This document shows positions 34,356 through 59,459 of a stretch of 60,000 nucleotides of DNA, in pieces (positions within the stretch are counted from its first letter, which is position 1; each line of letters starts with the position of its first letter). The translations under genes were made by a program, and so were the position numbers. The DNA is from Vicugna vicugna (Eukaryota). The notes under the pieces were generated by a model that saw only the letters and a program-made list of their open reading frames with translations, was not told where the DNA came from and searched no databases. The DNA is taken from positions 1,293,062 to 1,353,061 of the forward strand of contig MU057809.1 of assembly GCA_013265495.1 (NCBI GenBank), given 5' to 3'.

Positions 34356-34430
34356 CTAGTGCCCGCTGCTGCTGGGGTCCGGGCGAGGCTGGCTTGTGGC
34401 GAGGTACTTGGCTCTCATGCTGGAGGTGTA
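34356..34430 (-). CDS. TTYH3: TTYH3 exon 14 coding part (YTSSMRAKYLATSQPRPDPSSSGH*)
   Basis: ttccag|TAC...CACTAG stop. Confidence 0.95.
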   Translation of the reverse strand, partial: YTSSMRAKYLATSQPRPDPSSSGH

Positions 34431-36032
34431 CTGGAAGGAGACAGAGGGGCAGGCGGTCAGTGGGGCGCTGGGCATGGCTGGACATGGGCCTCGGGGGGTG
34501 AGCCAGGAGCACCCCTGGGGCGGGATAGGTACAGCTGACAGACCCTGGGAGGAGGGGCTCTGGGAAGCGCTGGCTGGTCCAGGGCCTGGACTCCTGAGCC
34601 CTGCCTCAGTGACAGCCCAAGGGAGCAGAGGTCTGGCCCCTACTTCCGAGGCTCAGGATGGGGACACTGGGGACCAACCTCCTCTCCCAGGAAGATAAAC
34701 ACATCAGCCCCCAATCTCCTGTCTCAGGCCAGGCAGAGCTCTGCTCCCTGCAAGACCTGGGGCCTGGAGGCCCCCCACCTGCACCCCTCACACCCAGGAC
34801 CTGAAAGCCATGCTCAGCCTCTCTCTGTGGGGCCCTGGCTGGGCACCCAGGAGAACAGTGTCAGGCAAAGGTGGGGCCAGGCTGTATCTGAGAAAGGGTC
34901 AGACCAGAGCCGTGGGCCACAGGAGTGAGGAGGCTCCGGGGCCACTCTGCCCCATCACCTCGGGGAAAGGGGGCCCCAAAGCCACCCAGCACCAGGCTGG
35001 GGTGCTGCTGCCACCCACTGGGTGGGAACCACACTGTGGGCTCCTTACGGGTCACAGGTGCAGGAACGGGCAGCTGGGGAGGGCCACGCTCACCCCACCT
35101 GAAGCACAGAGGCCCTGCGGTGTGCCCGTGTGCTCATGTAACACCCGTGGAGACATGTGTTAAGGCCGGGCAGTGTGAAGTGGGCCATACACCCATCTAG
35201 GGGATGAAAGCCAAGGCATGTGCCAAGGGTTGCCAGTGGGAAGGAGCCTGGCAGGCTGACTCCACAGCCACACGCCCCTACCAATCCCTGGGGGCTCCAG
35301 CAACCAAGTCCCCACACCACAGTGCCCAGGCCAGGAGGGGCAATCTCCCAGTCCTTGAGAGCTCTCCCAGAACTCCTGGTGGGGGAGAAGTTTGCAAGCA
35401 CCCATCAGAGGCCACAAAGGCAAGCTGGAGGGGGTAACAGCGGGCACTGGGAGCCGTGTCATTCCAGGGACATGCGGTGGAGGGGGGCGGTGGGCAGCAG
35501 CCCAGACCCCTGAAGGAGCCCAAGCAGGTGCACAGCGCTGTGTGGGGGCAGCTGCAGCAGCTTGCACGTCCATCTGCACACACCTGTGTGCACTTTCAGA
35601 CACACGGGGCGGCACCTCGAGGGCCTGGCCTGCTGGCCGCAGCCCAGCGCCTTCGCTCACCCGCGCTCTGCCTCCCTGAGCTCAGGCGCCGGTGCAGGTG
35701 TGCCAGCGCACAGGGGTCTGGGTGGGCGGTCTCCTTGCTGGGAGGTGACATGAGGGGCAGGGGCCACCTGCAGCTGGCCCTGGGGTGAGGAGGGGGCTCT
35801 GTGGAGGGGCTCGTGGCCTCTGACATGAGGATGATGGGCCCAGGGCCAGGGTCTCCGTGTCTGGGCTGGGGGCCACAAAGTCCCTGCGCCTGCACCGGCT
35901 GCAGGCTGGCCCCACGGGCGCCGAGCTGAGGCAGCCCCAGGACCTGGCAGATGGGCCCAAAGGGGTAGCAGTGAGCGAAGGAGAGGCGGGCGGGCAGGCG
36001 GTGCAGGGCAAGGGACCCAGGCGGGTCAGTAC

Positions 36033-36133
36033 CTGTCACTCTGAGGACACGGCCACCACAACGTTCAGGCACTGTCCATGGGCTTAAACTGCCAGCCCGT
36101 GTGGCTGCCAGAGTCCAGGGCAGCCAGATAGCG
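36033..36133 (-). CDS. TTYH3: Candidate alternative TTYH3 cassette exon 13a (RYLAALDSGSHTGWQFKPMDSA*; stop at 36067-36065)
   Basis: CTGAC branch-like motif, long (CT)n pyrimidine tract, cctcctag| acceptor and GACAG|gtactg donor. It is in frame with phase-0 exon 13. No transcript evidence is available here. Confidence 0.6.
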
Positions 36134-36806
36134 CTAGGAGGGCCCAGGGTGGGAGGAGTGCAGGGAGAGAGAGAGAGAGAGGGCGGCCTCAACGCCAGGG
36201 TCAGACCAAGGCTGACAGGTAGGAGGGCAGCCTGAGGCCTGGGGCCCACATGGCCTGGGGGCACACACCCAGGCCAGCTCTGTGCCACAGGGCACGACGG
36301 GACCACTGCACACGCGGGCCGTTATTTCTGAAGCAAGGTGGCCTTCGGCCTCTCTAGCCGTGCTCTTTGAGGCCCACCGCCTCTAGGAAGCCCGCCAGGG
36401 CCCCTGGCCTCTCTACGAGCTCCTTTATTTGGTACTAAATCACCCTGTCCCCTCTTCCATGTCTCACTCCAAAGACAAGAGGGGACACTAGGTCCTGCCG
36501 GAGGAGCCAGGAGCCAAGACCAGGGCTGAGTTCAGAAAGTGGAGTAGGGAGAAGAGGAAGCAGGGCTAGGGTGGGAAGAGATGCCGGGGCCCTCGAGGAG
36601 CATGAGAGCTCACCCAGCCCAGTCTCAACAGGCCGGATACCTGCCTGGGAGCCCCCCCAGGGAGCCCCAGCTGGCCCTGGCGCTGAAGGCTCAGGGCAGC
36701 CCCCATGGCTGCACTGTCAACGAGGGCCACATCAGACCATGAGGGAACAGGTGCCCCCCCATCCCAGGCCTCGGGTCCCCCACCCACCTCCTGCCCTGAG
36801 ACTTAC

Positions 36807-36882
36807 CGAAGGCGGCGGGGACTCACGCCCGATGAGGGGGGTGTTCTCACAGCGGGGGTTCTGGAAATTGGCATTCTGGCTC
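36807..36882 (-). CDS. TTYH3: TTYH3 exon 13 (SQNANFQNPRCENTPLIGRESPPPS)
   Basis: tctcag|GAGC...TCG|gtaagt, 76 nt. Confidence 0.95.
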
Positions 36883-37281
36883 CTGAGACGTGAGGAGAGA
36901 GGGGCTGTGAGTGACCAGTGGCCACGGCAGTCCCAGCCCTGGGCCAGGGGCCGATCTGGAGCCAGGCAGACCCACGTGTTCTCTCCACCACCCTGCATAC
37001 CGGCCGCTAGCAAGGGCCTGGGGGTCCCAGGAACCTGGCACGGCCATAAAGGGCTCAGAGCTAGCCCACAGCCGCCACCTGCCCGCCTCAGCCCTGCCAG
37101 GGCCTCGGCTCCATGACGTGGTCGGTCCAGCCCTCGGCGACCCCAGACATATACCCTCCGTCTGACGCAGGGGTCTCCTTGGCGTGTAGGGGCAGCAGGC
37201 ATTCAAGGCCAGCCCAGCACCCCCGCAGCTGGGGCAGCCCCCCCCAAGGGAGGCCCGCGCCCCGCCAGGCTCGGGGCTCAC

Positions 37282-37455
37282 ATGTACTCGGTGACCGGTG
37301 CGTTGCTGACAGTGTGCGCGGCAGCCGGGATGCTGGCCTCGCTGCCGTAGCTGCTCCCGCAGCTGTACAGGCTGGGCATGTGCACGCGGTAGAGGCTGTC
37401 GTGCGCCTGCCGTGGCCCTGGGCCGGCCTCCTCCTCCCCATCCTCGTCCGGGCCT
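37282..37455 (-). CDS. TTYH3: TTYH3 exon 12 (GPDEDGEEE...HDSLYRVHMPSLYSCGSSYGSE...PVTEY)
   Basis: ctgcag|AGGC...TACAT|gtgagc, 174 nt. Confidence 0.95.
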
Positions 37456-38029
37456 CTGCAGGGAGGGAACAGCCAGAGGTTCCGGCCCTGACGTGAGGCA
37501 GCCAGCCACAAGGCCTGCAGAGGGTCAGCCCTGGGGCAGACACACCTGGTCCCAAACCTTCTCGCTGTGGGATGGCGGGCGAGTCACCCGGGGAGGGCAA
37601 GAAACATGTACCTCAGTCTACACACAGGCACGCTGCCTGCCTATTAAGAGGAGGGGTCAGGGCCCCTCCTGGGGAAGCCAGGTGCCGGAAGCAGGAGGCC
37701 CTCTTTTGGCTCAGCAGTCTGACCTGCCCCTGAGAGCCTGAGCCCAGCCCTCCCCACTGCTTGCCTCTGGCCCTCTGCCCTCCACTCAGCCCAGGCTGCT
37801 GCAGCACGAGGCCAGGGAGCCAGGGGCCAGGCCTCTGGGGCTCGTCACACTCTGCCTGGGCTGCCTGGTGGTGGGGGCACAGGCCTGGGCTCACATCCCA
37901 CCTCCCCCCACCAGCTGGGTCCCGTAGTGAGAAAAGGGGGGCAGAAGCAGCCAGTACCAGCCACGCCCAGGACTGAGCCGCTGCATGCCGTGGTTACCCT
38001 AGCGTTCACGGGGTCCTAGGAGGACGTGC

Positions 38030-38170
38030 TCTCTCAATCCCCATCCTACAAGCAGGAAAAAACTGAGGCCCAGAGTGGTTAAGTCACTTGCCCAAGGTCA
38101 CCCAATGAGCAAAGGCAGAGGTGGAATCAGAATCCAGGCCACGTGGTTGCAGGGCTTGCTCTTAGCCACT
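38030..38170 (-). mobile_element. MIR SINE
   Basis: gaaaaaactgaggcccagagtggttaagtcacttgcccaaggtcac...ggcagaggtggaatcagaatccagg. Confidence 0.7.
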
Positions 38171-38189
38171 CCCCTTATAGATACCATCT

Positions 38190-38630
38190 TCATTACTACC
38201 ACCACCACCACCATCACCATCGTGACCACCACCACCATCGTGACCACCACCACCACCATGACCACCACCACCACGACCACCACCACCATTGTCACCACCA
38301 TCACCACTGTGACCACCACCATCGTGACCACCACCACCATTGTGACCACCACCGTAATCATCACCACCATCGTGACCACCACCACCACCATCACCATCAT
38401 CATGACCATCCACCATTATGATCACCATCACCACCACCATGACCACCATCACCATCATGACCATCACCATCATGACCACCACCACCATCGTGACCACCAC
38501 CACCACCACCGTGACCACCACCACCATTGTGACCACCACCACCATCATGACTACCACCACCATCATGACCATCATGACCACAATCACCACCATCATCATG
38601 ACCATCCACCATTATCATCACCACCATCAC
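38190..38630. repeat. Degenerate (CAC/CAT/GAC)n trinucleotide-based tandem repeat in TTYH3 intron 11
   Basis: About 440 bp of ACCACCACCATC/GTGACC units; the source of the poly-Thr/His/Val ORFs. Confidence 0.95.
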
Positions 38631-39322
38631 CAGAGAAAATAACAGCAGAAATCCAGACAAAGAGAAGAGATCTGAGCTGGGCTACTTGTCATCCAAGCTG
38701 GGCCACCAAGAAGCAGCCACAGCCCAAATGGGAGGGATGGTGGTGGGTCTGGGGACTGCCCCATGTGGCCCAAGCATGGCGGGCCTGGTATCCCCATACA
38801 TCACTCAATCCAGTACTGACTGCGAGACTGAGGCAGGGCTCACCAGCACCCCTACTTCAAAGATAAAGACACTGTGGCCCGTGGGAGGCAGCTGCCGTCC
38901 CGGTCACCCAGCTGAGTAAACCTTGGAGGCCAGGGCCATGTGGGGCGCTCCTGCCGAAGCTCAGAGCCCCCCGGTCGGCTGGTCTTTCTCCCAGCATCCC
39001 TGCACACTGCACGAGGGGTAGGGGCTCAGAAAAGACACTCTGAGCTCAGCCAGGCAGAAGCGTGGAAGGGTGTGGGGCACAAAGTCAGTACCCAGAGGCA
39101 GTCCGCCTGTGCTGGGAGCTCCTCCTCTAGGCTGCTTTCCCGGGGCATGCCAGGAACGGCTGCTCGTCTGGGGCACACCACCCTCAGAGATGCCGCGGAG
39201 ACTATGGATGTCAGGAGGTGAGGAAGCCTCTGTCCCTGTCCCTGGACTAGGACATGAGGTGTCCAGAAGGCACAGCCCCATGTGACTTGGGGCAGGTCCC
39301 AGGACCTGCCAGAGCCCCTCAC

Positions 39323-39459
39323 CTCTTCTGCTGCCAGGTGTGCGGGACGCTGCAGACGATGGAGCTGAACATGAGGGCTGTGACGAAGGAAAAGAGGGCC
39401 AGGTAGATGAGGCCCTCGACACCGTCATAGCAGAAGCCTGTGAGGGCCTGCACGTAGTC
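39323..39459 (-). CDS. TTYH3: TTYH3 exon 11 (DYVQALTGFCYDGVEGLIYLALFSFVTALMFSSIVCSVPHTWQQK)
   Basis: ctctag|GAC...AAGAG|gtgagg, 137 nt. Confidence 0.96.
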
Positions 39460-39583
39460 CTAGAGCCGGAGAGACGGCAGGAGAGAGGGGAAGCGCAGGG
39501 CAAGATGCAGCAGGTGCCCACGGCAGCCTGGAGCACCCCGCCCCGCCCCTCACTGCACAGCCCGCCCCACGGCCCGGTCTCAC

Positions 39584-39676
39584 CAGGTGCAGGCTCCGGC
39601 AGTCCACCAGGGCAGTGAGGTGCTGCAGGTTCACCTCCGTGCCATTCAGCACCTCCTGGACACGGAGCAGGGGGTC
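39584..39676 (-). CDS. TTYH3: TTYH3 exon 10 (DPLLRVQEVLNGTEVNLQHLTALVDCRSLHL)
   Basis: ccccag|GAC...CTG|gtgaga, 93 nt. Confidence 0.95.
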
Positions 39677-40267
39677 CTGGGGGCATGCACCACACTCGGG
39701 AGGGGGCCCCAGCCAGCCACAGGCCTCCTCTGCCCCACTCCCTGCCATCGAGACCCCTTCGACCCCCAGTGGTCTCGGCACAGAGCCAGAGGACCCTGGG
39801 CTTTGAGGAAGGACGGGCCCTGAGTCTGTGGCCTGGTCTCAGGAGGCTGCCAGGATGTGAGGACAGCAAGGAGGGCGGGCCCATAGCGCCCAAGCGATGC
39901 AGCCAACATAAGGGTCCTTTGTTACGACGGGAAAACCACCAACACCCCTGTCTCCCCCCGACATGGACCTGCTTCTTTTAAATACCACGTTTTAAGGAGC
40001 AATTTAAGACAAAGGAGATTTTCATGCTATTTTAAATGACAAAACATCATGCAAAATACTCTGTGTGGAGTGAACCTGGTCCTGGAATGTGTGTGTGTGT
40101 GTGCATGTGGCGTAAAACCCACCCCAAATCCTTGGGACATGACGGGAAGGAGGGAGGGATGAAAAGGGCCAGACCCCCAGCAGGGCTCCCCAGGAGCAGC
40201 GTCTGCACCACGCCTCCCTTTCACGATGAGCAAAGGGGGCCCCACCGCCGCCCCCTCAGCCCCTCAC

Positions 40268-40360
40268 CTTGGTGGCCGGGAGCTCCCGCGGGATGGTCTT
40301 CAGGAGCTCGGCCACAACGTCCTGCATCTCCACCAGTGCCTTGTGGCTGCCTGACAGCTT
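40268..40360 (-). CDS. TTYH3: TTYH3 exon 9 (KLSGSHKALVEMQDVVAELLKTIPRELPATK)
   Basis: gagcag|AAG...AAG|gtgagg, 93 nt. Confidence 0.94.
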
Positions 40361-40985
40361 CTGCTCCACAGAGAGGCCAGCTGATGCCAGCAGGGGCTGG
40401 GGCAGCCTCTCCCCCGCTCCCTGAGGCCTCCACCCACACACAAGGCAGGCGAGTCCCGGTGCCCCAGGCTCCTGCCAGCCCCAGAGGTGGGGCCTGGCAC
40501 TCTGTTCTGCAGGCCTGTGGGACACCCCTCCCCGGCCCACCGCCCCCGGCTGCCCATGCACCCCAGAGACAACACAGATCACCGGAAGTACAGCATCTCT
40601 AAAGCAGATAAACAGTCCTCAGGACCCCAGAGGGCGACAGTCACGTGGAGTGACAGGTTTCCCTTCAAATTCCACCTGACAACACCCGTCCAATCATTCC
40701 ACACAGCAGGCACAGGACGCCCCCACTGTGGGGCATCCCTGGGCTCCTCCCACGCCCACCAGACAGCTGACTTGGCCCTGCAGGCATGGCCAAGGACAGC
40801 TCAAGAAAGAAGTCCCAGGGACGTGGGGCCATTAAGCATCCACCCAGAACGCTTCTGTTGAGGGTATCAGGACGGGAGCCCCAGGGGTATGACAAGGTGT
40901 GAGGAGGGGCCTGGCAGCCTGCAGGTGTCGGTGGGGGGCAGCCAGGGACCAGAGGCTCTGCAGAGCCAGCAGCAGTCGCGCTCAC

Positions 40986-41041
40986 CTGCTGGAAGGGGTT
41001 GGCGGCACGCGGCGAGCAGGCCAGGTAGTACTGCAGGACTT
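40986..41041 (-). CDS. TTYH3: TTYH3 exon 8 (EVLQYYLACSPRAANPFQQ)
   Basis: ctgcag|AAGTC...CAG|gtgagc, 56 nt. Confidence 0.95.
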
Positions 41042-42479
41042 CTGCAGAGAGAAGGCAGGGCGGCTGAGCAACACATGCTGGTCGTGTGTGCTGTGTGCAC
41101 CCACACGTCTGTGTCCATGTGTCCCCATCACGTATGTCGCATGTACGCCTGCTGGCTTGTATATGCGTTTCACGTGTGCACGTGTGTGTGCGCACATATG
41201 TGTCTGCACACAGTGGCGTGTGCGTGTGCACCTGTGAGGGGGCGTGGCCTCCAGGGAGCCCAGGGCCCAGACCCTTTGCTCTGAGTCTTTTGCTCTGTGC
41301 CTTAAACGGGCACAGCTCTCTCCTGGGGGCAGCCTCCCACCTCCTTCCCCTCTGGAGCAGCAGACAGCACTGAGAGCGGGAAAGGGGTCCGACATCGGCC
41401 GGGCAGGCGTCCCCTCATGGGCCAGCTGGGCAAAAGAGTTCTTTGACCAGAGCGTCACCCCAAAGAGGGGGGTGGGGCTCAGAGGGAGCAGGTGGCCTGC
41501 TCCCCCCTAAAAAGCAGGTGTTGATTCTGTGTCTAATGCTCAAAGGTGGGGGGACTCACACACAATTCTGACTTTGAAAACCCAGGAGACCCAAGCCCAG
41601 CCAGGGTTGAGGAACAAGCCTTGGACCCTGACAACCCCTACCGCCGCCCACCCTGTGCCCTCTGGTCCCTTCGGCACCCAGACTCAGCCCTGAGGCTCAG
41701 CTCCTGAGGCCTGGGCTCCCACCAGGCTTAAGTCGGAAAACGTGAGAAAGCACGGCATTTGACTTCAGCCACCTGTAAGTGGAGCCAGCACGCTGCCTGA
41801 CCCAGATGGCCGTGGCCTACAGGCAGCAGCAAGCACTCTCGTATGGCTGGAACTGCTCATGCTTGCTGAGGCCCCAAGCAATAGGACCTACAGAGGCCCG
41901 GCTGCTGGCACCAGGGCCAAGGACAGTGGTGGGGACAGGTGTCACTAGCCCTGCCAGCCCCAGCCGAATAGGCCCACCGTCCCCCCACAGCAGGCAGACA
42001 GCCCTCCCTCCTGCAGGCTCCTCGGGCTTATGCGCCAATGGTTCCTTCAACAAAATGAACTAAAACCAGCCCACACGCCACTTGTGTGGCTTTCTTGGGC
42101 AAGGAGAGGAGCACAGTCCCATAAGGGCCAGCATTTCAAGGCCACTCCGCACGCCCACCCCTCAGGGAGCGCACCCCTGCTTTCCACCTGGGGAGCACGC
42201 AGCCCGAGCCCCAGAGTCCCCTCCTCGTGTGCCTGCCTCCCGGGTGTCTCACACCTGGTCCCCAGCCCCAGCCCTGCTCGGCCACCAGCTCAGTCCAGGG
42301 CCCCTGTGATGGCAGCTGCTCCGACCCGAGGCCGGAGCCCTCAACTCGTCCCTCCTCCACGGCCACCTTCCTAGGAAGTTCCATCAGCTCTGCCCTCACA
42401 GCACATCCTGGTATCCTCACCCAGCTGTCTCCTGCCTGCAAGAATGCAACAGCCTCCCTGCCTCCCTCCCTCACCCCAC

Positions 42480-42790
42480 TGCTGCTCCAGCGCCCGAGGC
42501 TTTGGAAAGGAAGTTTAACCATGGATCACATCTACCTCCTGTTTTCCACCCTCCAACAGCCCCCCTAGAATAAAGCCCAAATTCTTGACTGCCACCTGGC
42601 CCTGCGGGCCTCCCCACTGTCTCCCCTCCCAACTGGTCTATTTTCTGCCTCACGAGCACATCAAGTTTGTCTCTGTCTCAGGACCTTTGCACAGCCTTCC
42701 CTGGCTCAATTTTCATGCCACTTCTTGGGCAGGCCACCCTGACCACTAGTTCTGAAGCAGCCCTTGTCACCTGCTACCCACCCCCACTGC
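42480..42790 (+). mobile_element. Decayed L2 fragment
   Basis: ctccagcgcccgagg...ggatcacatc..ctcctgttt..accctcc...tctcaggacctttgcacagc. Confidence 0.5.
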
Positions 42791-43000
42791 TGGTCCCTCT
42801 TCCCTGCCCCCACCCTCACCCCCATGAGCCTCACCTCCTGTCCTCCTCCTCCCCAGAGTCTCACAGGTGCTCCTGCCTCCTCACCAGCTTCCTGGTCTGC
42901 TCCTGCCTCCCCCAAGGAGGACTCACGGGGGCAGGCTCGCTCACTGAGGTCTCCCAAGTCCAGCCCCAGGGCACCCACGGGTACCCAACCGCAGACTCAC

Positions 43001-43076
43001 CCCCGCTCAGCACCGAGTGCTCCTCCACCATCCTGGTCACATAGGTGTCGGGGTCCACACAGAAGTCACTGGAGCC
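43001..43076 (-). CDS. TTYH3: TTYH3 exon 7 (GSSDFCVDPDTYVTRMVEEHSVLSG)
   Basis: ccccag|GGC...GGGG|gtgagt, 76 nt. Confidence 0.95.
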
Positions 43077-43355
43077 CTGGGGGGTGTGGGCAAGGCGGAT
43101 GAGATGACCATGCTGGGCCCCCTGCCGACCCCTCAGCTCTCAGGGCTAGAGCCTGGGCCCTCATGGCCTGCTTTTGTCTCAGGAAAATGGAGTGTGAACC
43201 TGTGGGGGCATTATTGCTGTGTCCCCAGAACAGGTCCCCAGCTCTCTCGGTGTCATCATGGGAGTGGAGATGAGTGTGGTGCCTCCTCACCCCCGTTCCC
43301 CATGCCTTGGCCTAGCAGATGGGGACCACTCCCCCCAGTCCTCGCCAGCACTTAC

Positions 43356-43428
43356 CACAGACACAGCCAGCTCCAAGCCCAGTGTGCCCCAGCTGATGAC
43401 CAGGGCCAGGACACCCAGCAGGCAGACC
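43356..43428 (-). CDS. TTYH3: TTYH3 exon 6 (VCLLGVLALVISWGTLGLELAVSV)
   Basis: ctttgccccaag|GGTC...GTG|gtaagt, 73 nt. Confidence 0.94.
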
Positions 43429-44738
43429 CTTGGGGCAAAGAGAGCCAATCAGCACTCTTCTGGTGGGGGTGAGGGCTGTGCCCCCTGCCAGGCTGCACGC
43501 CAGAGGCCCAGGTCCCAGGGCACATCTAGGGGTCCGCCACACAGGGGCTGTGGCTCCCGCCATGGCCCGGCCTTCACTAGAGCTGCCTGAAGGCCGGGCA
43601 CATATGGATTCCCTCTGAACTGGAGCGGCTAGAGTGGGGCTGAGAGAAGTCCGAGTGGGGACAGGAGAGGCAGGGCTTGGCTCGGCTGGAAGGCCAGGGG
43701 ACTTCTGAGCCCCACTCCCGTACCCCCAGGCCGCTCTCCTCAGCAGACTGGGGTCCCAGCTCTCACCCTGGCCCAAGGCCTGCAGCCCACAGCGTGGCCC
43801 GTGGGGCCCGTCAGCCTGGCGCGGACCAAGCCTTCCTGTGCTCACACCCCACCCGGCACCGCCTCAGACCTCCAGGCAGAGTTCTCCCCTGTGGCACTGG
43901 CCCCCTCCTCCCCTGAGGCCTCAGCTTGCCTGTCCCCCACCCACTCCAGCCACTCAGGCCCCTCTGCTGCTCCTTGCACACCCACCACAGGCCCGTGCAC
44001 TGGCGGTCAGCTGCCCTCTCCCAGGTGTTCAGGGGTCCCTGGCTCCCGTGGGTGTCGGCTCCAGCAGCCCCTCCTGGCCAGGTCTCTCCGAGTGTGCGCG
44101 CTGCCAACCCCCTGCCCACCTGTACACCCTGCCCTCCACCTGCTGCACTTTCCTCCCTGGGGCCATCACCTCCAACAGCGGCATGCACACTCTGTGGGAG
44201 CCCTTGAGTGTGGGCCTGGCCCAGGGAGGAGCCAGGACGTGGCTGCTGGCTTGTTCAGCAACGAGTGGTGATGTCCCCTCAGAACTGTCCTACAGATGAG
44301 CTGTCGTTCTCTTTCTCGCAGACAAGAAGTCAGAGACTCAGTGCCAACAACCACCTGTCCACGGCAGGCAGCTCAGGGAGCCACAGAACTGGGGTTCAAG
44401 CTCATACTACCTCTAGCCAAAGAGACGGGGTGGAGAAAGGAGGCCCCCAGCCTGACCTCCCGGAGGCCCCATGCACTCTGGGACCTGGGCAGGTCTTCAG
44501 GAGCCTCTGTGGGGGAGGGGCACGGCAGGAACCAGGAACTGCTGGGGCAGGCGTGCCCAGACGCTGGCCACAGGGCAGGGGAGGAGTGTCGGAGCAGGGC
44601 CGCACCGTGGGGAGCCCCACCGTCAGGCAGACCCTGTGGCTGGCCGTGAGGATGCGGAGGGTGGGACAGGACTGACTCAGGGGACATGTGCTGCAGGTGA
44701 CTCACCCCTCCCACTGCCCCAGGGGCCCACAGACTCAC

Positions 44739-44834
44739 CCCACCAGGATGCCCTTGGAGCTGCGGATGAGGCCAACGAGCACCAGAAGGCAGATGGCAAC
44801 GTCGAGCAGCAGGAAGCCCAGGTAGCCCAGCCAC
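44739..44834 (-). CDS. TTYH3: TTYH3 exon 5 (WLGYLGFLLLDVAICLLVLVGLIRSSKGILV)
   Basis: ctgcag|GTGG...GTGGG|gtgagt, 96 nt. Confidence 0.95.
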
Positions 44835-45162
44835 CTGCAGGCGCACCGCACAGATGGGCCGGGCCCGCGGCCCCGGGGGCCGGCAGCAAGGGCGGGCTGG
44901 GGCAGGGCAGGCACCTGGGCCCAGGGGGGGCAGGGCCAGGCAGACAGCCCAGGACGCAGCGGGCCAAGCACAGGCAGTTCTGGGATGTGGAGACTAGCTT
45001 CAGTTCTTACAAAAGATGTCCCCACGGGAACTCCTTCCACAGTGGCCACCAGTGGCCCCGACCCTTCCCATCCATAAGACCTCAGGCCCGGGGAGCTGGG
45101 AGTCAACCGGCCCACAGACAGCAGTGACCAGGTGGGGAGGGCAGGAGAGGGGTGGGCCGCAC

Positions 45163-45383
45163 CTGTACCAGTCGTAGAGGTCCACCCACTCGGCCAGCGC
45201 CTCCAGCGACACAGCCGGGTTCCTCCAAAACGGGAGGGCAGCTGTGTGGCCGAGCAGTGTCTCCAGCAGGCCCTGCAGCCGCTGGACCGCCCGCAGGGGC
45301 TCTGGCCGGGAGGCCAGCTGCCGCTCCAGGCTCTGCAGGCTGGGCTCCGCCGTGCGGTTCAGGGCGGCTGCAGTGTCCCACAC
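45163..45383 (-). CDS. TTYH3: TTYH3 exon 4 (VWDTAAALNRT...WVDLYDWY)
   Basis: gcacag|GTG...TACAG|gtgcgg, 221 nt. Confidence 0.95.
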
Positions 45384-45515
45384 CTGTGCCAGGTTGGGGG
45401 CAGCGTCACCCGGGAGGGCACGGCGCCGTTCTCGCACGCGCCCGCACGCTGGGGCACACACGCACACACGCGGCTTAGAAGCAGGAAGAGGACCCCCTCC
45501 CATACGGCCACTCAC

Positions 45516-45627
45516 GCGGTCCTGGACCCCTGCCACCGTGCGGTTGGCGTGGCGGAGCGAGTAGGTGGCCCGGTGGATGCCGTCGCTGGTCTCCCCGTTG
45601 CCGTAGAACCCCACGGCGATGCCGGCG
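45516..45627 (-). CDS. TTYH3: TTYH3 exon 3 (AGIAVGFYGNGETSDGIHRATYSLRHANRTVAGVQDR)
   Basis: tcccag|CGCC...CGC|gtgagt, 112 nt. Confidence 0.96.
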
Positions 45628-45767
45628 CTGGGACAGGGCGGGGCCGCGTGAAGGGCGGGCCTCAGGGCGGGCGCGCCCCCGCGGCCACCTGGCCCGCCCC
45701 TTCCCGCCTGGGTCCCCGCCCCCCGCGGGCCACGCCTCCACCCAGCCTGACCCAAACGCGCGCTCAC

Positions 45768-45937
45768 CTGCAGACCAGAGTGGCGATGATGACGCACCAA
45801 GCGGTGCAGCAGCAGTCGGCGTCCAGGTGCTCGTCGCTCTTGCGTCGCCGGCAGCACAGCCAGAAGGAGTAGAAGAGCAGGAAGAGGAGGTCCAGGGCGA
45901 GGCACGCCAGCGCGGCGGCCCCAAGCAGCAGCAGCGC
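45768..45937 (-). CDS. TTYH3: TTYH3 exon 2 (ALLLLGAAALACLALDLLFLLFYSFWLCC...DCCCTAWCVIIATLVC)
   Basis: cctcag|GCG...TGCAG|gtgagc, 170 nt. Confidence 0.96.
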
Positions 45938-48900
45938 CTGAGGGCGGTTGGGAAGTGGTGCTGGAGGTGTGGGCCCCGCTCTGGCTCTGCACCCAACTCC
46001 GGTACCAGCAAAGCCCACCGGCGCCCGCGGTCAAGGGATGGGCACACACTCCCACTGAGCCCTCCCCCAGCACCTGAGTGACATGCCTGTGGTCACCCAG
46101 ACCTGTGACCCCAGGCTCACCGTCTTCAGGCCTAGACTCAGGATTCAACCCAAACGCCACCTAGTGGGCAAGACCATGAGGTGCCCTCTCCTAACCCCTC
46201 CCAAGCCCTGTGTCCTCCCCTTGGGAGCCCACCACCTCCTGGGCCCCAGAGCCCGAGGCAGACAGGGGTCCTGGACCAGGCCCTATGAGGAGGTGTTGGG
46301 TGGGTGGGGGCCCCAAGGCAGGGCCAGCCCAGTTGCTAACCAGTGGCCACTAACTGGCCACATGGCCAAGGAAGGCCCTTACTCTCCCCGAGCCTCAGTT
46401 TCCTTGTCTGTAAAAAGAGGGTGATGCTGCCTCCCCAGAAGAGGCAGGCACAGTCTTACTGAAGGCCACCCACGCCTGCTGTGGGGCTGGGCACACAGCA
46501 GGGCCCCAGGAAGGGGCTGTCAGCACCACGCCCCCACCCTCATCCTCACCCGCAGGGCTGAGACTGCTCTGGATCTGAGCGCCTTCGTGAGCTTCAGCCC
46601 CACGCAGCCTGAAGGGCCCAGAATTCTCCAACCTGGCACCAGGAAGCATCAGGGGAGGAAGGAAAACCCCCCAGCACCCTCCTGTCACTAAGGCCAGCGT
46701 CCCCCATGGGAAGCAACTGACTCGATCCAGCAGCGATGCCCACTGTGGGCTCAGCTGTGGGCTGGGCCTCCTGGGGCAGGGACACAGCCCAGAGCCTTCA
46801 CCTGCTGGGACAGGCACCAGCCCTGCCCCGCCCCCGGGGAACCTCGCCCTTCAGTGTGCCTGGTCCGGTGCTCACCCCCATTCAACTGATAAAGAAACTG
46901 GCTTCAGAGAAAGTATGGAGGAGGGACCCGCGTGTCCACATCACAGCCCTTCGGGGAGTCTCAGTACCCATGCTTTGTCAGGGTGGGAGTGGTGGCTGGC
47001 ACAGGACTGCAGGGCAGCAGGCTGGCCCCGACCCTGTACAGCTCATGAGGGGGAGCCGAGGAAGTACCACAGAGGTGCCCACCCACTGGACACCCCTCAG
47101 CTGCCATGCTGGCACTGCTGCAGAGACAGCCAGACCTCGGGGACCTGGAAACACCCTCACCCCACATCCAAACAGTCAGCAGTGTGGCCGTGAGCCTGGG
47201 GAGTCACTGGGGTGCAGAATGCCCCAGGTCCACCTGCCCACTGCAGGGCCCCCTTGGGACCAGAGGCTCAGCCACAGAGGCACTAGGACCGCTGGATCAT
47301 AGCCCGGGTGCCCAGCAGCTGTCTCCTAGGAGACAGTTGCCAGGCAGCAGACATAGGATGGCACTCCCTGCCTTCCCAGGAGCCAGCTGGCCCCAAAGGC
47401 CTCCTGCCAGGCCCACCATCCCTGGCTGACCCCTGCACCCGAGGCAGGACTCTCTCACCTGACCAGGGTGGTGCTGACCAGGGCATGCACCTACAGCCAT
47501 GGTCCAAGCCAAACTGGGGGCTGACTTGCTGTCTGGAGACTGGGCCTTGCCCCCCTCCAAAGGCACAGGGTGGGGACACCCTCTTGGGGAAGGCCAGGTC
47601 ACCACCACGAGGCTGCAGCACAGGCCAGAGGGCCTGACAGGCCCTGACCACCCCTGCTCACCGACTGGGTAGGGGAGGGAGCAAGCCCAGTGGGGCTGGC
47701 TCCAAAGCCACTTCGTCAGCTCAAGGCTCCCTAAAGGTCCCAGGGTGCTCACATCAAAGGGGACTCTGAGGCGGCGGATGGGGGAGCTTGTCCAAGGTCA
47801 CACAGGGAGGTGGGCCAGGCCACAGCAGAAGGGAATCAAGGGCCTGCCGGAGGGCCAGGCGCCAGTCACAGGGGAGGATGCTCACCTTAAGGAGCCTAGT
47901 ATCAGGCACAACCTCCATCCCACCCAACACAGCCCGGCACGAGGCGTTAACATCCGGGGGCTGGGAATAGCACTGTCTTGTGGGTCGTGCCCTCACACAC
48001 ACACACAAAGCGGGACACCAGGCATAGATGCTGCAGGCCCTGCCGGTCCCTTTCTCACAGGTCAGAGGCAAAGGGCAGAATAAACCGCCGCCTCCCACAA
48101 CCTCAGTCAGACCACAACATGCGCCACGTCTCCACTGGGACTGAGCCCCCTTCGATGCCACAGGCACCCCGGCTCCCAGGGTCCCACAGACCCTGTCCAC
48201 CAGGCCCATCTGGGCCCCAGGCTGGCAGCATCCCCGCCCCACGGCCTCCAGCAGCCCTCAGGCCAGCACTGCCACCCTGCCCCACCTCGTGCCACCCCTT
48301 CTCCCGTCTGGTCCCCCCCATCACTGTGGGCCGGTCTGGGAGAGCAGGCTCTACCCTCAAACCCAGAACACAGCTGGCTCCGAGCTGATCCTTAAATGAG
48401 CACACCTACACACCTCTAGCGAGGAAATAGCCCCTGGGGCGAGGAAGCCAGGGTGGGGGCACAGGGCAGGCGGCACCCAAGCTGGGGCCCTGAGCCGACC
48501 AGCCTGGCAGCGAGGCCAGCGCTCACGCAGTCAGGACTCATCAAAGACCCAGACCACAGCCCAGGTGGCGCCAGGACCACCCACTCCTGTTTCCCAGGTA
48601 AGAAAAGCGAGGTAAGATAAGCATCACTGGCCAAGCAAGACCCCAGCACCTGGGGGGACACGCCAGCGCCTGGCCCGGCAGGCGCCCAGCAGAGGCGGCT
48701 CCCGTCCTTGGGGCTGCTGGGCCGGTGGAGGAAGAGGGGTGAGGCCTTCTAGACGGGAGCCAGGCCATGAAGAACAGAAAAAGCGCAACAGGCAGCGACC
48801 CGAGCAAGTCAGGGAGGGCACGGGCTGGTCCAGGGGTCAGAGTCACCGCGGCCGACGGCACCCGGAAGGCGCCGGGCCTGGGCACCTGCGGGGCGGGCAG

Positions 48901-49419
48901 GCGGGAGGCACGCCTGGGTCTCCTGCAGCTTTGATTTGTTTTTTGTTGTTGGGGTTTTTTTTAAATCTTTTTTTGGTTTTCTTTTTTTTTCAAACCACAA
49001 ACCATACTACCTTTATAATTAAAACAAAACCAGAAACCTGGTAGTAGCTCTTTTCAGTTGTGTGTGGGAGGCCCCTGGCCTGCGCCCAGCTCTGCCACGT
49101 GGGAGCCCGTGCGGCCCGGCAGCCCCAGCAACTCCGCCGTGGGACGTGACATTCCACGGCCCCTCCCGGTGTCACATGGGAGAAGGGCCCTGGCAGCCAC
49201 GAAGGCGAGAAGTTGAGCCCCTCTTGTCTGTGGGGATGCTGTACCGTCCCTGCTGGTGCCAGTCCTCCAGGAGCAGAGACCGAGGGGACGGACACCCCGG
49301 GTCTTGCCGCCGGAGGCTGCTGCGAGCTGCCTGCTGCTGGCCAGCGGTGTGGGGGAGGGCGGCCCGGCTCATGGGGGAACCAAAGTACTGCAGGTCAGTG
49401 CTGCTTGGCCTGGTTTAGA

Positions 49420-49560
49420 ATGTGACCACGAGTCAGTGACTTTAGCCTCTGTGCCTCAGTTTCCCCACATATAAAACAGAGACAGTAATATCACTGTCCT
49501 ACCTAGAAGGGTTACTGTGAGGATGGAACAAGCTAATACCTGTAAAGACTTCAAACAGCG
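49420..49560 (+). mobile_element. MIR SINE
   Basis: gtgactttagcctctgtgcctcagtttccccacatataaaa..gacagtaata...acct..agggttactgtgaggat. Confidence 0.7.
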
Positions 49561-52500
49561 CCTCCGTGGGGAGCGGGGAGGGGGCGCTGCTCCCAGACCA
49601 GCTCTGCCCCGCCGCAGCCTGGTGGGCTGGGGACAGGGAGTCGGTGTCCTGGCTGCTCAAAGACGAGGTGAGAGTGTCCACGCCCACACACGCATCTCTA
49701 CGCCCGTACACTCACACGTGCACCCACACCCGTCCATGTGCACGTGTCACCGCTGAGCTCCCAGCGGTGTGGTAGCAGCAGCCTGTGGCTGGAAGCTCTG
49801 TGGCTGTGGGCGGGCAGGTGGGGAGGGGGTCCCACGCGCCTGGGCACCGGACACCTGCCAGCGACGGGGAGGGGGAAAGGCTTCGGCCAGCCAGGCGCAG
49901 CCTCACTCACAGGCACCTGCCTTGGGGTCCGGAAGTCACAGCCCTGGGGGAGAAGTCTCCCACCCCACCCCGCCCCCCTCCAGCCTCACAGAGCTGAGCC
50001 GAGTAACCGGCGAGCGTGGCCAGGGGCTCAGACAGGCACCGAGGGCAGAGGGGTTGCTCCCAGAGGCTCTCCTGGGGGCAGTGACAGGCACAGGCCTGGG
50101 TGCTGCATGAAAAGCCAGGGATCTGGGCAGCTGCAGTTCTGTCTACACAGCTCCAGAGAGCCCTTCCTGACAGTGAGGACAGGGACCGACGTCCACCGTC
50201 TACGTGCTGGGTCTGTCTGCCCACACCTCCGCCAGTGGGTCCTGGAAAGGCCTCACTAAGCTCATCAACTTACCAAGGGTGGTGGCCCCTGAGGCCTGGC
50301 CCACAGTGGGCGCTCAGAAACACAGGCCCCTGCCACCCACCCCCAGCTGACAGGCCGGGGCAGCTTCCTCTCTGGCAGGATGCTCTCCTCCTGGACAGGC
50401 TTAGCCTTAAACAGTGACCCCAGCGGGTGGCTGCGGGGCCTAAACCAGGACAGCCACACACAGCCCCGACTGAGAGGCGACAGCACCCTCCTAGTTTACA
50501 CAGGGGAGGCTGGCACTGGGAGCACGGGGCCCCGCCCACTGCTGCCGGCGAGCAGAGCCCGTGCCCATGGGGTGCCCGGCACTGGGCAGCTGTATCCTCC
50601 TGCCCAGGGTCCCGGGTGCCTGCCCTGACCTCTGCCCTTGTCCCTGTGGCCAGATTCCCAGAGAGCAGCCTTCTGCTGGCACTCCCGTGGTGGCCCCACC
50701 TCCCCTTTCCACGGCCTGGCTTCCCCTCTGAATGGGAAATGTCTGATCAGCATCGGGGCTCTGACCAAATGGAACTTTCCGTCTGCGATGGAAGTGATGT
50801 CAGCAATCGGTCAGGCGAGGCGAGACACTGGGGCCCACATCCTGACCGCTGGCCACGGCGCTGGCCTCCAGCCACCTAAGGCGCTCCTGTAGCGCCCATG
50901 CTGTGAGGACTCGGCACCGACACACGTGCCCAGGGCGGGGGCTGGGGGCGCTCGGTCCACCCACCCCTCCTGCCGCTTCTCAGCCTGGACCACCCCATCC
51001 TCCCCAAGGCCCTGCAGCCTTTGCCACAGGGTGTATCCACCGAGGAGGCCCCCATCCACCTCTGGGTCCATACACTCCCCCGAAGCCCCCACCTGCTCTG
51101 GAAGCACCCACCGGGCCAGAGCTCAGGGTCTGAAGCCTCACCGCTTCCTAGGTAAGGCCCAGGCCCACATCTGAGGCCCTTCGGGGGGCCTAACAAGCCC
51201 CCGCCCCAAGCAAGTCCTCCAAGCCTGGCAAGGGCACAAGGGGCGCGGGACGCCGGGGCAGCAGTGTCCCCGTGTGAGCCTCGGCTGGGTCCCTGTGCGA
51301 GCAGAGGGAGCCCCAGCGCAGCCTTGGACTTGCTGGCAGTCTGGGTGCAAAGAGAGACCCAGGTCAGACTGGAGAGGGCCACAGCGCGCCATTAAATCTT
51401 ACTAACAAAGCCGTGCGGGGGGGCTTGGCTCCACTGCAGATGGGAGGGCATGGCAAAAGGCGGCGTGGGGCTGCAAGTCTGCCCCTTCTCGGACCCACTC
51501 ACGGCTTGTTCCCGCCAGCTCCCTTCCATGGGACTGCGCACCGCACACAGTGCCAGCTCAGGCTGCCCTGCGATGCTCTAGGCCACCAGGCGGGGAGGGC
51601 CCTGCGTGACCCTGGGCAGCACAGCCGTGTGCCACCTGCACAGGCAGCTCCAGCTAGGTGTCCTGGCAGTACCTGGCATGGAAGCCCGCAGGGGAGTGTG
51701 CCACACATGGTGAGCACACCAGAACCACAGACATGCACCCCACCCCTCACACCCCTCCTGGGAGAGCAACCACCGTGCCAGCAGCAACCGACATGGGGGC
51801 TGGCCTGTCCACTCAGCCCCTCTGCAGGACACCACAGCCCACAGCCAGGCTGGAGAGCCCTTGCCCCTCTGGGAGACCCTCACAGAGCTTCTGATGGGGA
51901 GTGTGGGGCTACGGCTGTCCCCAGCCACAACCCAAGGCCACATCCCAGCCACCCTGCTGCCCCAGCCTCAGTGGCGTGTGTCCCTGGCTAGCCTGCTTGT
52001 GGGAGATCACGTGCACCCGGCACCGGTGCCACAGGCAGGGGAGACCGGGGACTAGCAGCCCAGGGGTGACTCGGGAAGGCTCCAGGGAGTTGGGGACTCC
52101 CTCAAGATCACATGGCTAGCGTGCTGGAGCCAGGATCCAGGGATGTGACCACAGCCTGAGGTCCCACCGCTGCCGTGGCATGAGGAACTAGCGAGGCCTG
52201 CGAGCCTGCCCTGCTACAGAGCGGCCTCTGCCCCGCCCTGTGCCAACCCTCCCTGGGAGGCAGCCTGGCCAAGTGGTAAAGGGCAAGGCTCCAAAGAGGA
52301 GACAAGTCCAAATTCCACCAGGGATCCGGGACCTCACCATCCTGTACTCACATGCCCATGTGTGGGTCGCACCTGCCTCCCTGGAATAGGGGGGCCGGAC
52401 TCACCACACACAGGGCCCTCAGCCCAGAGCTGGCCTCTAGGCTGTGGAACTTCAGCAAGCATGTGCCTGTACTCACACCAGCCCTGGCACTGGGCCCTGG

Positions 52501-55500
52501 GGACATGGGACCCAACCGGCACAGCCCCTGCGGGGCCGGGCTGGCAACTCTCAAGACCCCAGAGTGTGGGCCTGGAAGCTCAGAGGCTGTTGGGGCCAGG
52601 CAGGCTGGGGGAGGGGTGCAGAGACTTCAGAGGTGTCCCCTAACTGCCATCACGGGGTCAGCAGGGCACTGTGAGGCATGGGGGAGCACTCCCAGAGAGG
52701 GACGGTGAGAGCAAGCGCCCGGCACAAGGCGCAGGCTGCAGCCTTCATCCTGAGGGGCCCTGGCAGCTGTGGCCTGGCGAGGGTCAGCCCTGAGCCCACA
52801 GCTCCTGACAGCAGAGCAGGGCCCTGGGGGATAGGGCTGGGGCACGCAGCGAGGTGGGAGAGGGGAACCAGGGGCCCCTCAGTGCCTCCAGGGGACACCC
52901 ACCCCAGCCCTGGGACTGCCACGGGCCCTTCTCCAGAGGAGGAAGCCAGGGAGGGGCGTCCAGGAGGCTGGCGGGGTCCCACATCCTGAGGCACTATCTA
53001 GGAACCCATACATGTCCTGGCTGGAGCCCTGGGCCTGGGAGAGGAAGGGGAGAGGCTGCCGCAGCTCCTGTGTCTGGGGGACACGCACCACAGGCGCTGC
53101 CCACTCCCCTCGGGCTGGCCATCTGCCCCAGCACCCTCTGCGGCCCAGCTCCACACAGCCTTGTTGGTCCCCAGAACTCCTGGGGCAGGGGGGCGTCCAC
53201 CATCCAGAGGAGGAGTCTGGGGCCCCCACATTGAAGCATGGAGGCAGGGTCTGAGCCAGCACGGGCCTTCTAAGGGAAGTTCTGGAGCCCCCACCAGAGC
53301 CCCCACTTCCTGGGCTGGGCTGGGTTGGGCTGGGCGGGTGCAAGGGCTGGGGCCGCGGTGCTGAGCTGGCTGTGCGGCCCGCAGCCGCCCCCACCCCCAC
53401 CCCCAGCGCACTTGGCCGTGGCTCCCAGATGTCGGCCAGAAATTAAAAACAGCTTTTCCACCAAGCTGGGCTTAGGTTTCACAAATTCCATGCTGGTGAG
53501 CTCGTGGCCATGCCTGGAGAAAGCACAGCCAGCAGCCAGCGTGCCGGGGCCCAGGAGGGGCCCAGCCTTTTGTCCAAGCCCCCCACGCTGAGACCTAGTT
53601 CCCGGCACCAGGCTGCACACACATTCACCAGCTGCAGGTCACCTCCTCAGGGGCACATGCCACGCTGCCCCCCAGGAACCAACAGGACAGACGCCCAGTG
53701 AGGCAGGATCGGGCTGAAGCCTCAGAGAGCAGCTCTGGTCGGTCACCCCCCAGGCCCAGCACCCCCTCTGCTGCCCTCCCGGACCATGGGCCAGGTGGAG
53801 GAAGGCTAAGGCCCCACACTGCTGCCCACACCGGCTCACAGAGGGAGCAGACACCAAAGAGCCCAGCACCGGAGCTGCCCTTGAAGCAAAGAGCATGTCT
53901 ATTTTGGTCCCAGTGCCCTAACTCATCTCCCAACACGACACTCAGAAAGCCTGTCTGCAAGAGCTTCTCCACCGGCCACCACTGGGAGCCCAGGTGACAG
54001 GCCTCAGATGCAGGCAGGAGCCACCAGACAGGCCTAGTCACATCATCAGGCTAGACCAGAGTCCAGCACCAGGGCTCGCCTCCACCAGGCAGATGCGCCC
54101 CGGGAACTCAGCCCAACCCCCGACTCCAGACTCAAACTTCTGGAGTGCCCCTCCCAGTGGCCAGGAACCCCGCCCAGAGCGCACGGGGCCAGAGGAGGAG
54201 TGCCAGGTAGGGGGACACTGGGCCTGCCACTCTTCTCAGAGGCAGAAGGAAGTGGTCACTCAGGTTTTGGGCAGGCAGGCCTCACCCTGTGCCCTCGGCC
54301 AACACAGGACAGTCCAGCCATAGAGGGTGCCTGTGGACGAAACCAAGCCTCGCTTTGGCACACCTGTCCCTCAGAGCCCACCTGCCTCCTGTGGGGACCA
54401 GGCCTCAGCCAGTCTCCTGGGGAGGGGGAGGGGGAGGGGCACACCAATGGGGGCTGCGGGTGACACACGCGTGCAGGCCTGTGTGCGTGCATGAGCCCAT
54501 CCGGCACGTAACAAGCCCAGGCCATGGGCAGGGGCAGTGGGGAGGGAGGCTCCCGAGGCCCTTCTCCCACACCCCACCTGGCCCACCTGCCGACCCCAGC
54601 ATGTCTCGGCCCCACAGGGCCTCGTCACGCTGAGCTGCAAAAGCCCGACTGTGGGTCTGAGTCCTCCCCAAGACCACGGGAGGTCCCGGAGAGCCACCTA
54701 GGGGCCAGTGTGTGTCCTGGCCAGCACAGGGCTCAGGCAGGCTCCCTGCAGACCCCAGCAGGCAGCACAGGCACAGCCAAGCACTCCTCGGGCCCTGCTG
54801 CACCCACACCGCCCTGTCTCGTGCCCCAGTCCCTCGGGGGGCCACGTGAGGCCCCTTCCGTATCCGTGATCCCGTCCCTGGGCTGCAGATTTGCTTCCTC
54901 TTCTCCAGCCAAAGACTCAGCAGAGCCGCCTTGGCGGGTAGGGGGTCTGGTCCTGACCCCCGCTGAGGCTTCCTGAACTGCACCTGCTGGCAGGGCTCAG
55001 GGAGCCTCCTGACCAGACCTGGAAACCACAGGGGCTGTGTCCACGGGCTGGGCATGCTGACTGGAGCCGGGCCTCCCGTGTCTCCTGGCCCACCGACGCT
55101 AGCTGGCCAGTGGCCTCCGGTTCACTTCTGTAGAGGCAACAGTGCCCACCTCCCAGGGTCACCGTGTGGCTTCCCAGAGAAATGCTTCTAAAACAAACAG
55201 CACGCGTCTCTTCGGCAGAACAGCTGTAGCTCAGGGACAGGAGCCACAGAGCACCCCGGGCCAGAGCCAAGGCAGGGGCTCCCCCGCCTCCCTCCAGTGC
55301 ATGGGCCCTGCACCCCTGATGCCCAGCTCACAGCTGCTGTCCAAGCAGGGCTGCGCTAGGAGCTGCCACGCTGCCCCTCAAAGCGCTCTGTCCCATTTGG
55401 CACGTCTGTCACTTGCAGCCCCAGAATCCTAACCCTGGTGCCGTGGGATGCTGGGTAAGCATCGAGAGCTAAGGACCAAGGACGTGGTCCAAAGACCTGA

Positions 55501-58500: not shown

Positions 58501-59459
58501 CCCTTTCTAATCTGCTTAGAAACAGATCAGCAGGACTAGGGGACCGGCCGCCAGGTGAGGGCTGGGCGGCGGGCTCCCCTGCAGAGCTGGGGTTCTGGTT
58601 CTCTTCCTCTGGATAAGGGAGGCCACAGCAGAGGACAGAGTTCTGAATTGTCCAGGTGTGACACGGTCCACGCAATACTGGACCTCCAGGCCATCTGGAC
58701 GAGCAAAGCCGTTTCAACCTCACCCTGGGGGCTCTGCATTCATCCCTGAAGAGAAACCTAGACATGTGCCAGGTGACCAGGAGTCCCAGTCATGGGGGTT
58801 CTGGAAGCTGGATCCCCAGACAGGAAGGAAATGCCACAGCCTGGTCTCCTGCCCTGCGCCCAAACGGCAGTGGCTCAGTGATGGGGGTGACACTGGGGCT
58901 TGGCAGGACCCCAGACCTGGGGCTCCAAGGGGAGAGTCTGGTCACATGGGGAGAGGGCTACAAAGGGTCCATGCTGTCCCCGAGCTCTGCCGAGGCTTAG
59001 CTCCTTTCCAGCCTTCCAAACGGAGGCTCATCTGCATCCCTATGGCCAGCCCTCCCTCCCTCCCTCAGGTGCTATAGGCAGCCGGGTCTCTGGGCAGGCA
59101 CTGTGTGTCCATCCCACAACCTGGCTGTCCAGCAGGGGGTCATTACCAGCCAGGGAGGGTTGGCAACTACACAGACCACTCGCCCACCAAGAGTCTGGCA
59201 GGGAGTGGGATTCCCGGGCTGCGGGTGAGGGGACTGCACCCAATGCTCTCAGGCAACAGCTGTGGTCTCAGAGCCCTGGGGTCCTCTGGGTAAGGGGCTC
59301 TGCCTGGCAACACCCCCAGGGTGCCGCTGGTCAGCTGCCCGGGCAGGCACTGACAGCTGGCAAAGAGGGCTCCATGGAAGGGAAGGAGTTGGCTCCATGC
59401 AACCCCAGAAAGGAGGGTCTCAGTGACTCCAGAGGGGAAGGCTAGAATTTACAGAAGCT

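Follow-up and report, generated by a model that had tools for sequence, protein, structure and literature searches.

A conserved alternative penultimate exon of TTYH3 in the vicuña that is predicted to exchange the C-terminal tail and to remove the PY motif

The stretch of DNA analysed here, referred to as the window, comprises 60,000 nucleotides (nt) of Vicugna vicugna (contig MU057809.1 of assembly GCA_013265495.1, positions 1,293,062 to 1,353,061) and carries the gene TTYH3 on its minus strand. The subject of this article is an alternative exon, here called exon 13a, which lies in the intron that divides the PPxY (PY) motif of the TTYH3 protein. The exon model of the gene was obtained by tblastn with retrieved TTYH3 proteins followed by refinement of the junctions. 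Its product agrees with the TTYH3 model of alpaca (XP_015099985.1, P0209) at 351 of 351 aligned residues and shows approximately 95.5% identity to TTYH3 of other mammals. A Pfam scan was also conducted on 150 of the 157 minus-strand open reading frames (ORFs) of at least 50 residues located above position 36700, with the Tweety family (PF04906) being matched in seven of these 150. Using this approach, the gene was identified as a member of the Tweety family and as an ortholog of TTYH3. The parts of it that are needed here are as follows.

34356..59952, minus strand: coding region of TTYH3, with 14 exons, a canonical product of 524 residues and all introns GT-AG
36807..36882, minus strand: exon 13, 76 nt, ending in ..ESPPPS in phase 0 and holding the PPPS of the PY motif
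34356..34430, minus strand: coding part of exon 14, opening with TAC, the codon for the Tyr of PPPSY, and encoding the canonical tail YTSSMRAKYLATSQPRPDPSSSGH, followed by the stop

Exon 13 ends at position 36807 with the codons GAG TCC CCG CCG CCT TCG, followed by a GTAAGT donor, and exon 14 starts at position 34430, with CTCCTTCCAG lying immediately upstream of it. The canonical junction of the two exons encodes PPSY, which is a PPxY motif. As this junction is in phase 0 and splits the motif, with PPPS located on exon 13 and the Tyr on exon 14, the Tyr is kept or lost depending on which exon is joined to exon 13. Intron 13 (36806-34431, minus strand) holds the alternative segment, which had been described in a first-pass annotation as a hidden cassette exon that would switch off the PY motif. 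Its features are listed below; the splice-site scores are explained further on.

36033..36133, minus strand: alternative exon 13a, 101 nt, orthologous to the exon that encodes the alternative tail in TTYH3 models of vertebrates
36068..36133, minus strand: coding part of exon 13a, 22 codons encoding RYLAALDSGSHTGWQFKPMDSA in the frame set by exon 13
36065..36067, minus strand: TGA stop of the alternative tail, with 32 nt of exon 13a remaining after it
36200..36204, minus strand: CTGAC motif resembling a branch point, approximately 68 nt upstream of exon 13a; a putative branch point
about 36165..36181, minus strand: CT-repeat pyrimidine tract within a 52-nt AG-free stretch before the acceptor
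36134..36136, minus strand: TAG acceptor of exon 13a, with a crude score of 2.8 (constitutive acceptors of the gene, -2.0 to 10.0)
36027..36032, minus strand: weak donor GTACTG in the context CAG/GTACTG, with a crude score of 4.0 bits

The statements made in the first-pass annotation on the exon ends, the CTGAC motif, the CT run, the AG-free stretch, the acceptor, the donor and the stop were all found to be exact on the minus strand, and its numbering of exons 13 and 14 agrees with the 14-exon model. Exon 13a is located between the exon ending in ..SPPPS and the exon starting with Y-TSSMRAKYLA, and its peptide fits the conserved tail x-YLAA-x-D..SH..WQ-x-KP. At 101 nt it puts the last exon out of frame, and a cassette of this length is also entered in a published mouse table discussed below. 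Pfam analysis of eight ORFs on both strands over the site of exon 13a identified no family, and no Rfam family was found at gathering score over positions 33000-38000.

When exon 13 is spliced to exon 13a, the reading becomes SPPPS followed by RYLAALDSGSHTGWQFKPMDSA and the stop. Inclusion of the exon had been expected to abolish the PPxY motif and to replace the tail, and this was borne out, with PPPSY becoming PPPS-R-Y in the window and the canonical tail of 24 residues giving way to one of 22. Translation ends inside exon 13a, and exon 14, the frame of which is shifted, becomes 3' untranslated region. Stop codons located closer than 50-55 nt to the last exon-exon junction escape nonsense-mediated decay. 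The stop of exon 13a does indeed lie close to that junction, being 32 nt upstream and within this limit, so that the mRNA, as read from its predicted structure, should be spared this decay pathway. Neither PPxY nor LPxY occurs in the alternative tail of the window or in any of those collected from the databases. The position after PPPS is occupied by Arg in the window, by Cys in the tenrec and by Leu in nearly all non-placental vertebrates, with Phe-Gln occurring in a goby and Leu-Phe in lamprey. In a model from Desmodus the tail continues into exon 14 in the shifted frame, and the read-through models of bats and cats end a few codons into it.

To follow the two tails through the vertebrates, protein searches were conducted with several queries. 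The first of these was the ORF over exons 3-4, which is blind to the tail and cannot favor either form. It gave 274 proteins at E <= 1e-5; among the best 120, which were taken for analysis, SPPPS is followed by the canonical tail in 68 and by the alternative tail in 23; seven more show different tails, in most cases from intron read-through, and the anchor is missing from 22. The models with the alternative tail include those of human (XP_016868144.1), baboon, owl monkey, squirrel, two bats, cattle, goat, dolphin, pig, peccary, puma, armadillo, anteater, tenrec, opossum, Tasmanian devil, platypus, crane and Komodo dragon. With the C-terminal 40 residues of the platypus isoform as query, 39 matches were obtained from 43 candidates, all of them named TTYH3. 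Every one of the 31 newly found proteins (31/31) possesses the alternative tail, with frogs, lizards, birds, teleosts, bowfin, horn shark and ray being gained as lineages. A further search, with the C-terminal 40 residues of the Molossus isoform, produced 43 matches from 261 candidates. The weakest of these, a chimaera model (P0378), was rejected as a carrier of the alternative tail, which it does not contain. Identities to the 22 tail residues of the window, used as reference, are given here.

Molossus XP_036097450.1 (P0154): 22/22 identical
human XP_016868144.1 (X2 model, P0045): 21/22 identical
cattle: 19/22 identical
armadillo: 18/22 identical
opossum: 16/22 identical
platypus: 15/22 identical
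owl: 15/22 identical
anole: 16/22 identical
Rana: 15/22 identical
bowfin: 13/22 identical
sea bass: 11/22 identical
loach: 8/22 identical
horn shark (P0136): 16/22 identical
ray: 15/22 identical

The human and Molossus models have the same tail after SPPPS, located between exons 13 and 14, as the window. The pattern YL.A.D..SH..WQ..P..S is retained in at least 80% of 18 aligned tail rows, and such retention of a peptide over these distances would be unlikely for an unconstrained intron. Conservation of the peptide across species, which the first-pass annotation had named among its checks, was thus found from mammals to sharks, and the tail seen after SPPPS in so many vertebrate models bears out the reading of the segment between exons 13 and 14 as a genuine alternative exon. 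We consider it practically certain that exon 13a of the window is a real and conserved alternative penultimate exon of TTYH3. Among the records retrieved there are also bird entries labeled IQCE (P0186, P0189, P0193) in which IQCE-like sequence directly follows the ..SPPPS of TTYH3. Such records have the appearance of fused or read-through gene models, and a tblastn search of the window with P0189 identified no IQCE-like sequence.

The strength of the splice signals was assessed using crude donor and acceptor position weights, with textbook frequencies, and decoy acceptor/donor pairs were counted at a spacing of 30-300 nt. Intron 13 contains 39 decoy pairs which score at least as well as exon 13a at both sites, and 206 such pairs occur across all 13 introns of the gene (24,022 nt). 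The splice signals alone put exon 13a no higher than chance; it stands far above chance because the peptide it encodes is conserved in other vertebrates. These decoy counts are what would be expected of a chance pseudo-exon, possessing splice-like signals which are never used, but such a pseudo-exon would not be expected to encode a tail matching that of shark at 16 of 22 residues, nor one whose homology to the lamprey tail (see below) beats 20,000 of 20,000 shuffles, nor to be spliced in the models of many species and entered in a mouse catalogue. In our view this explanation is refuted by the conservation, and its probability is close to nil.

Exon 13a proved not to be hidden, as had been supposed. 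The alternative tail is present in RefSeq XP_ models, in Ensembl-derived TrEMBL entries and in genome-project predictions of many vertebrates, human included, and a 101-nt cassette is part of the published mouse table of PMC5989265. The exon is real, ancient and already annotated, and because of this annotation it is no discovery in itself. In Supplementary Dataset 9 of that article the mouse Ttyh3 cassette is entered as CA-78339-25581-26840-26941-28500[INC][1/34][DNT], which describes 101 nt flanked by a 76-nt exon and the terminal exon, in agreement with the window in length, position and exon order. The comparison is one with the table row, not with mouse sequence, and the [1/34] is taken as counts of inclusion and skipping, which is our own reading of the format. 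A second mouse Ttyh3 cassette, of 76 nt, is entered in the same dataset with [29/1].

To determine the age of the exon, an exhaustive search was conducted with the platypus isoform, which returned 841 proteins at E <= 0.001, the best 150 of which were taken. These include a Tweety gene of lamprey, labeled 'tweety homolog 1-like', which is 37% identical overall to the platypus TTYH3 query. Its predicted isoform pairs in three species (P0219/P0354/P0356; P0353/P0355/P0357) diverge exactly after SPPPS, with one tail beginning YATAMRHH.. and the other being LFLAASNGANGLLWQPNTRDGASTRRL (LFLAAS..WQP..). Alignment of the lamprey and horn-shark alternative tails gave a score of 53, compared to 17.8 +/- 4.2 for shuffles, with none of 20,000 shuffles reaching 53, and the score of the lamprey and platypus alternative tails was likewise reached by 0 of 20,000. 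As controls, the score of the lamprey canonical tail with the shark alternative tail was reached by 10,799 of 20,000 shuffles, and that of the lamprey alternative tail with the shark TTYH2 tail by 5,283 of 20,000. The lamprey alternative tail is similar to that of TTYH3 in being homologous, in having the same split point and in having a partner isoform with a Y-tail, but differs from it in having F at position 2, where TTYH3 has Y, and in ending ..STRRL. From these alignments the PY-removing alternative exon appears to be older than the split of lampreys and jawed vertebrates, which dates back roughly 500 million years. No such alternative tail was found among the TTYH1-like or TTYH2-like sequences retrieved.

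Two last-exon tails after SPPPS also occur in Tweety models of amphioxus (P0373/P0374; P0236/P0372/P0375), both starting with Y and keeping the PY motif. They were rejected as equivalents of the alternative tail, as 8,401 (platypus) and 8,496 (shark) of 20,000 shuffles reach the score. Because amphioxus has two tails which both keep the PY motif, alternative tails at the SPPPS junction may predate the PY-removing version. An origin of exon 13a as a duplicate of the last coding exon was also considered, as both tails contain [KR]YLA and DS.GS.H, but was not supported by shuffling, with 1,526, 147, 2,989 and 2,958 of 5,000 shuffles reaching the score in four species pairs.

The possible meaning of the exon lies with the PY motif. 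WW domains bind L/PPxY (PMC2824488), and TTYH2 and TTYH3 are given as targets of Nedd4-2 in passages of PMC8273234 and PMC2824488 which cite He et al. (2008, J Biol Chem 283:24000). The action of Nedd4-2 on TTYH2 and TTYH3, mentioned in the first-pass annotation, is in this way confirmed at second hand. The placing of exon 13a between exons 13 and 14 would put Arg (Leu in non-placental vertebrates) in the place of the Tyr. The resulting isoform would then be unable to dock the WW domains of the Nedd4 family and would escape that route of ubiquitination, and its conserved tail (..SWQ[FL]KPS[DE]S[AS]R[ST][YF]W-COOH outside placentals) may bind some other partner. The best explanation of the data, and one which we hold to be probable, is that exon 13a is a conserved alternative penultimate exon of TTYH3 which swaps the tail and removes the PY motif. 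As sequence logic the loss of the PY motif is sound, and it recurs in all lineages examined; in terms of cell biology it is put forward as a proposal. It is highly likely that the isoform is translated into a protein lacking the PY motif, and the chance that the alternative tail measurably changes the Nedd4-2-dependent handling of TTYH3 is judged to be slightly better than even. In the literature searched, no paper was found on the alternative-tail isoform of TTYH3, on its link to the PY motif, or on the ubiquitination or turnover of the isoforms.

The replacement tail has a conservation of its own. Outside the placentals its consensus is LYL[AT]A.D..S[HG].SWQ[LF]KPS[DE]S[AS]R[ST][YF]W up to the C-terminus, and the end R[ST][YF]W is present in 56 of 58 non-placental alternative tails (counting two shark/ray forms with NS inserted), with the two exceptions being cut-off models of opossum. 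Human and most vertebrates have four more residues (RTLW, RTYW or RSFW) than the window, which ends in ..DSA. Since the tail is conserved along its whole length, and not only at the residue displacing the Tyr, it points to a partner of its own. The loss of the PY motif may therefore not be the only or the main effect selected, and the replacement tail is an equally good candidate for what selection keeps. Class I PDZ ligands have S/T at position -2, and an alternative tail with S/T at -2 and an aromatic last residue resembles them. It is accordingly conceivable that the exon is real but was selected for a function of its alternative tail, for example as a C-terminal scaffold ligand, with PY loss being secondary. 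This would be compatible with the explanation preferred above. However, there is no partner known for the alternative tail, the lamprey tail ends in ..STRRL instead of ..[YF]W, and the last four residues are lost in the window and in eight other placental models and are therefore dispensable in some lineages. Such selection is considered possible but rather doubtful.

A number of observations weigh against the view that exon 13a swaps the tail and removes the PY motif as a functional alternative. Its donor (4.0 bits) lies below all 13 constitutive donors (5.9-11.3 bits) and is the weakest in the gene. All alternative-tail records seen are computed models, with no curated record among them. Gene-prediction pipelines use proteins of other species, and an artefact copied between genomes by homology-based prediction would leave records of just this kind. 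Such copying does not account for the window, which encodes the peptide without any annotation, nor for the mouse table, the identifiers of which carry counts of inclusion and skipping in the format as interpreted here. A predictor moreover reports only what each genome encodes, and the conservation of the tail is therefore real; an annotation artefact is very improbable. The mouse table itself gives a support of 1 inclusion to 34 skipping for the 101-nt cassette, which is placed in no developmental module and has 0 for Mbnl, Rbfox, Nova and Ptbp (PMC5989265). If the mouse entry is a guide, exon 13a looks like a minor isoform with no obvious on/off switch. As for Nedd4-2, one passage (PMC6628158) credits this ligase with setting the cellular level of TTYH2 only.

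The remaining adverse observations concern the tails of placental mammals. Of 81 alternative tails, nine end prematurely at ..SA, as that of the window does, and four run on beyond the normal terminus. Judged by record names or lookups, all 13 belong to placental models (for P0162 of cheetah, one of the four, tail and protein were paired by length only), with the early end being seen in models of cattle, goat, dolphin, pig, peccary, two bats and armadillo. In addition, the first residue of the tail has changed from L to R and SWQ to GWQ in placentals, and from these changes the placental versions look less constrained. The TGA of the window (36065-36067) takes the place of an Arg codon that in most vertebrates precedes T-[LY]-W or S-F-W, and a change of CGA to TGA would explain it. 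The early stop looks recurrent or shared among placentals, and it is the later stop that is lost in bat and cat models.

These placental changes, together with the weak donor, the 1/34 support in mouse and the lack of regulation flags in that table, could also mean that exon 13a of placentals, the window included, is a decaying relic which is spliced at noise level and has no function of its own. The window nevertheless retains the AG and GT of the two splice sites and 22 codons of open frame, and the placental tails (bat, human, cattle, armadillo) are identical to it at 18-22 of 22 residues, which would be far above expectation for an unconstrained intron. We regard a relic as unlikely, and because of the looser placental tails and the mouse entry it is allowed that the exon is losing importance in placentals.

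Other features of the gene and of the window were also recorded. Introns 2, 3 and 10 measure only 140, 132 and 124 nt, respectively, with intron 3 located within 45516-45163 on the minus strand, and intron 3 or other introns are read through in several database models (P0001, P0003, P0005-P0008), inflating these to 541-623 residues. Exon 5 (44739-44834, minus strand; 96 nt) encodes the hydrophobic stretch WLGYLGFLLLDVAICLLVLVGLI.., and residues 210-241 of the model are absent from TTYH3 database forms of 491-494 residues, which corresponds to skipping of exon 5. Forms without it include human TTYH3 'Isoform 2' (P0043) and the human X2 model P0045. This skip is in-frame and would delete a membrane helix. 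A run of 37 N at 9320-9356, presumably an assembly gap, is distant from TTYH3. PTB binds CU tracts, and repression of exon 13a by this protein through the CT-repeat tract was considered. The CT run is present, and the mouse table, with a value of 0 for Ptbp, gives no support to such regulation.

Taking the preferred explanation of exon 13a further, it can be tentatively proposed that the C-terminus of vertebrate Tweety proteins is a module of two states which is older than the split of lampreys and jawed vertebrates. In one state the last exon would complete a PPxY motif for the docking of Nedd4-type ligases, and in the other an exon would delete the Tyr and install a different conserved ligand at the C-terminus (..R[ST][YF]W-COOH), with this second state being eroded in placentals. 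If this is true, splicing would pick between turnover driven by ubiquitin and some other state in which the protein is anchored or trafficked, and the erosion in placentals would have proceeded through recurrent changes of Arg to stop and through read-through tails. The alternative tail, kept from lamprey to mammals, in every case removes the sole known ligase-docking motif, and a comparison of the two tails is possible with material in the databases.

The situation in TTYH3 can be compared with that in other membrane proteins. TTYH2-like proteins possess SPPP[ST]Y at the same place as TTYH3, and Nedd4-2 is reported in the passages mentioned above to act on both, with the TTYH3-type alternative tail being absent from the TTYH2-like and TTYH1-like sequences retrieved. 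The closer parallel to the splicing itself is ErbB4. A short in-frame cassette of ErbB4 carries a PPxY motif which is absent from the other isoform. According to PMC6116191, alternative splicing of ErbB4 determines the presence of PPxY motifs for the docking of NEDD4 and ITCH, with CYT-1 being ubiquitinated and degraded more efficiently. TTYH3 resembles the CYT-1/CYT-2 pair of ErbB4 in that splicing sets whether a membrane protein has a PPxY motif. Unlike ErbB4, where the motif is located on the cassette, inclusion of the exon in TTYH3 would destroy the motif by displacing its Tyr and would exchange the whole tail at the same time.

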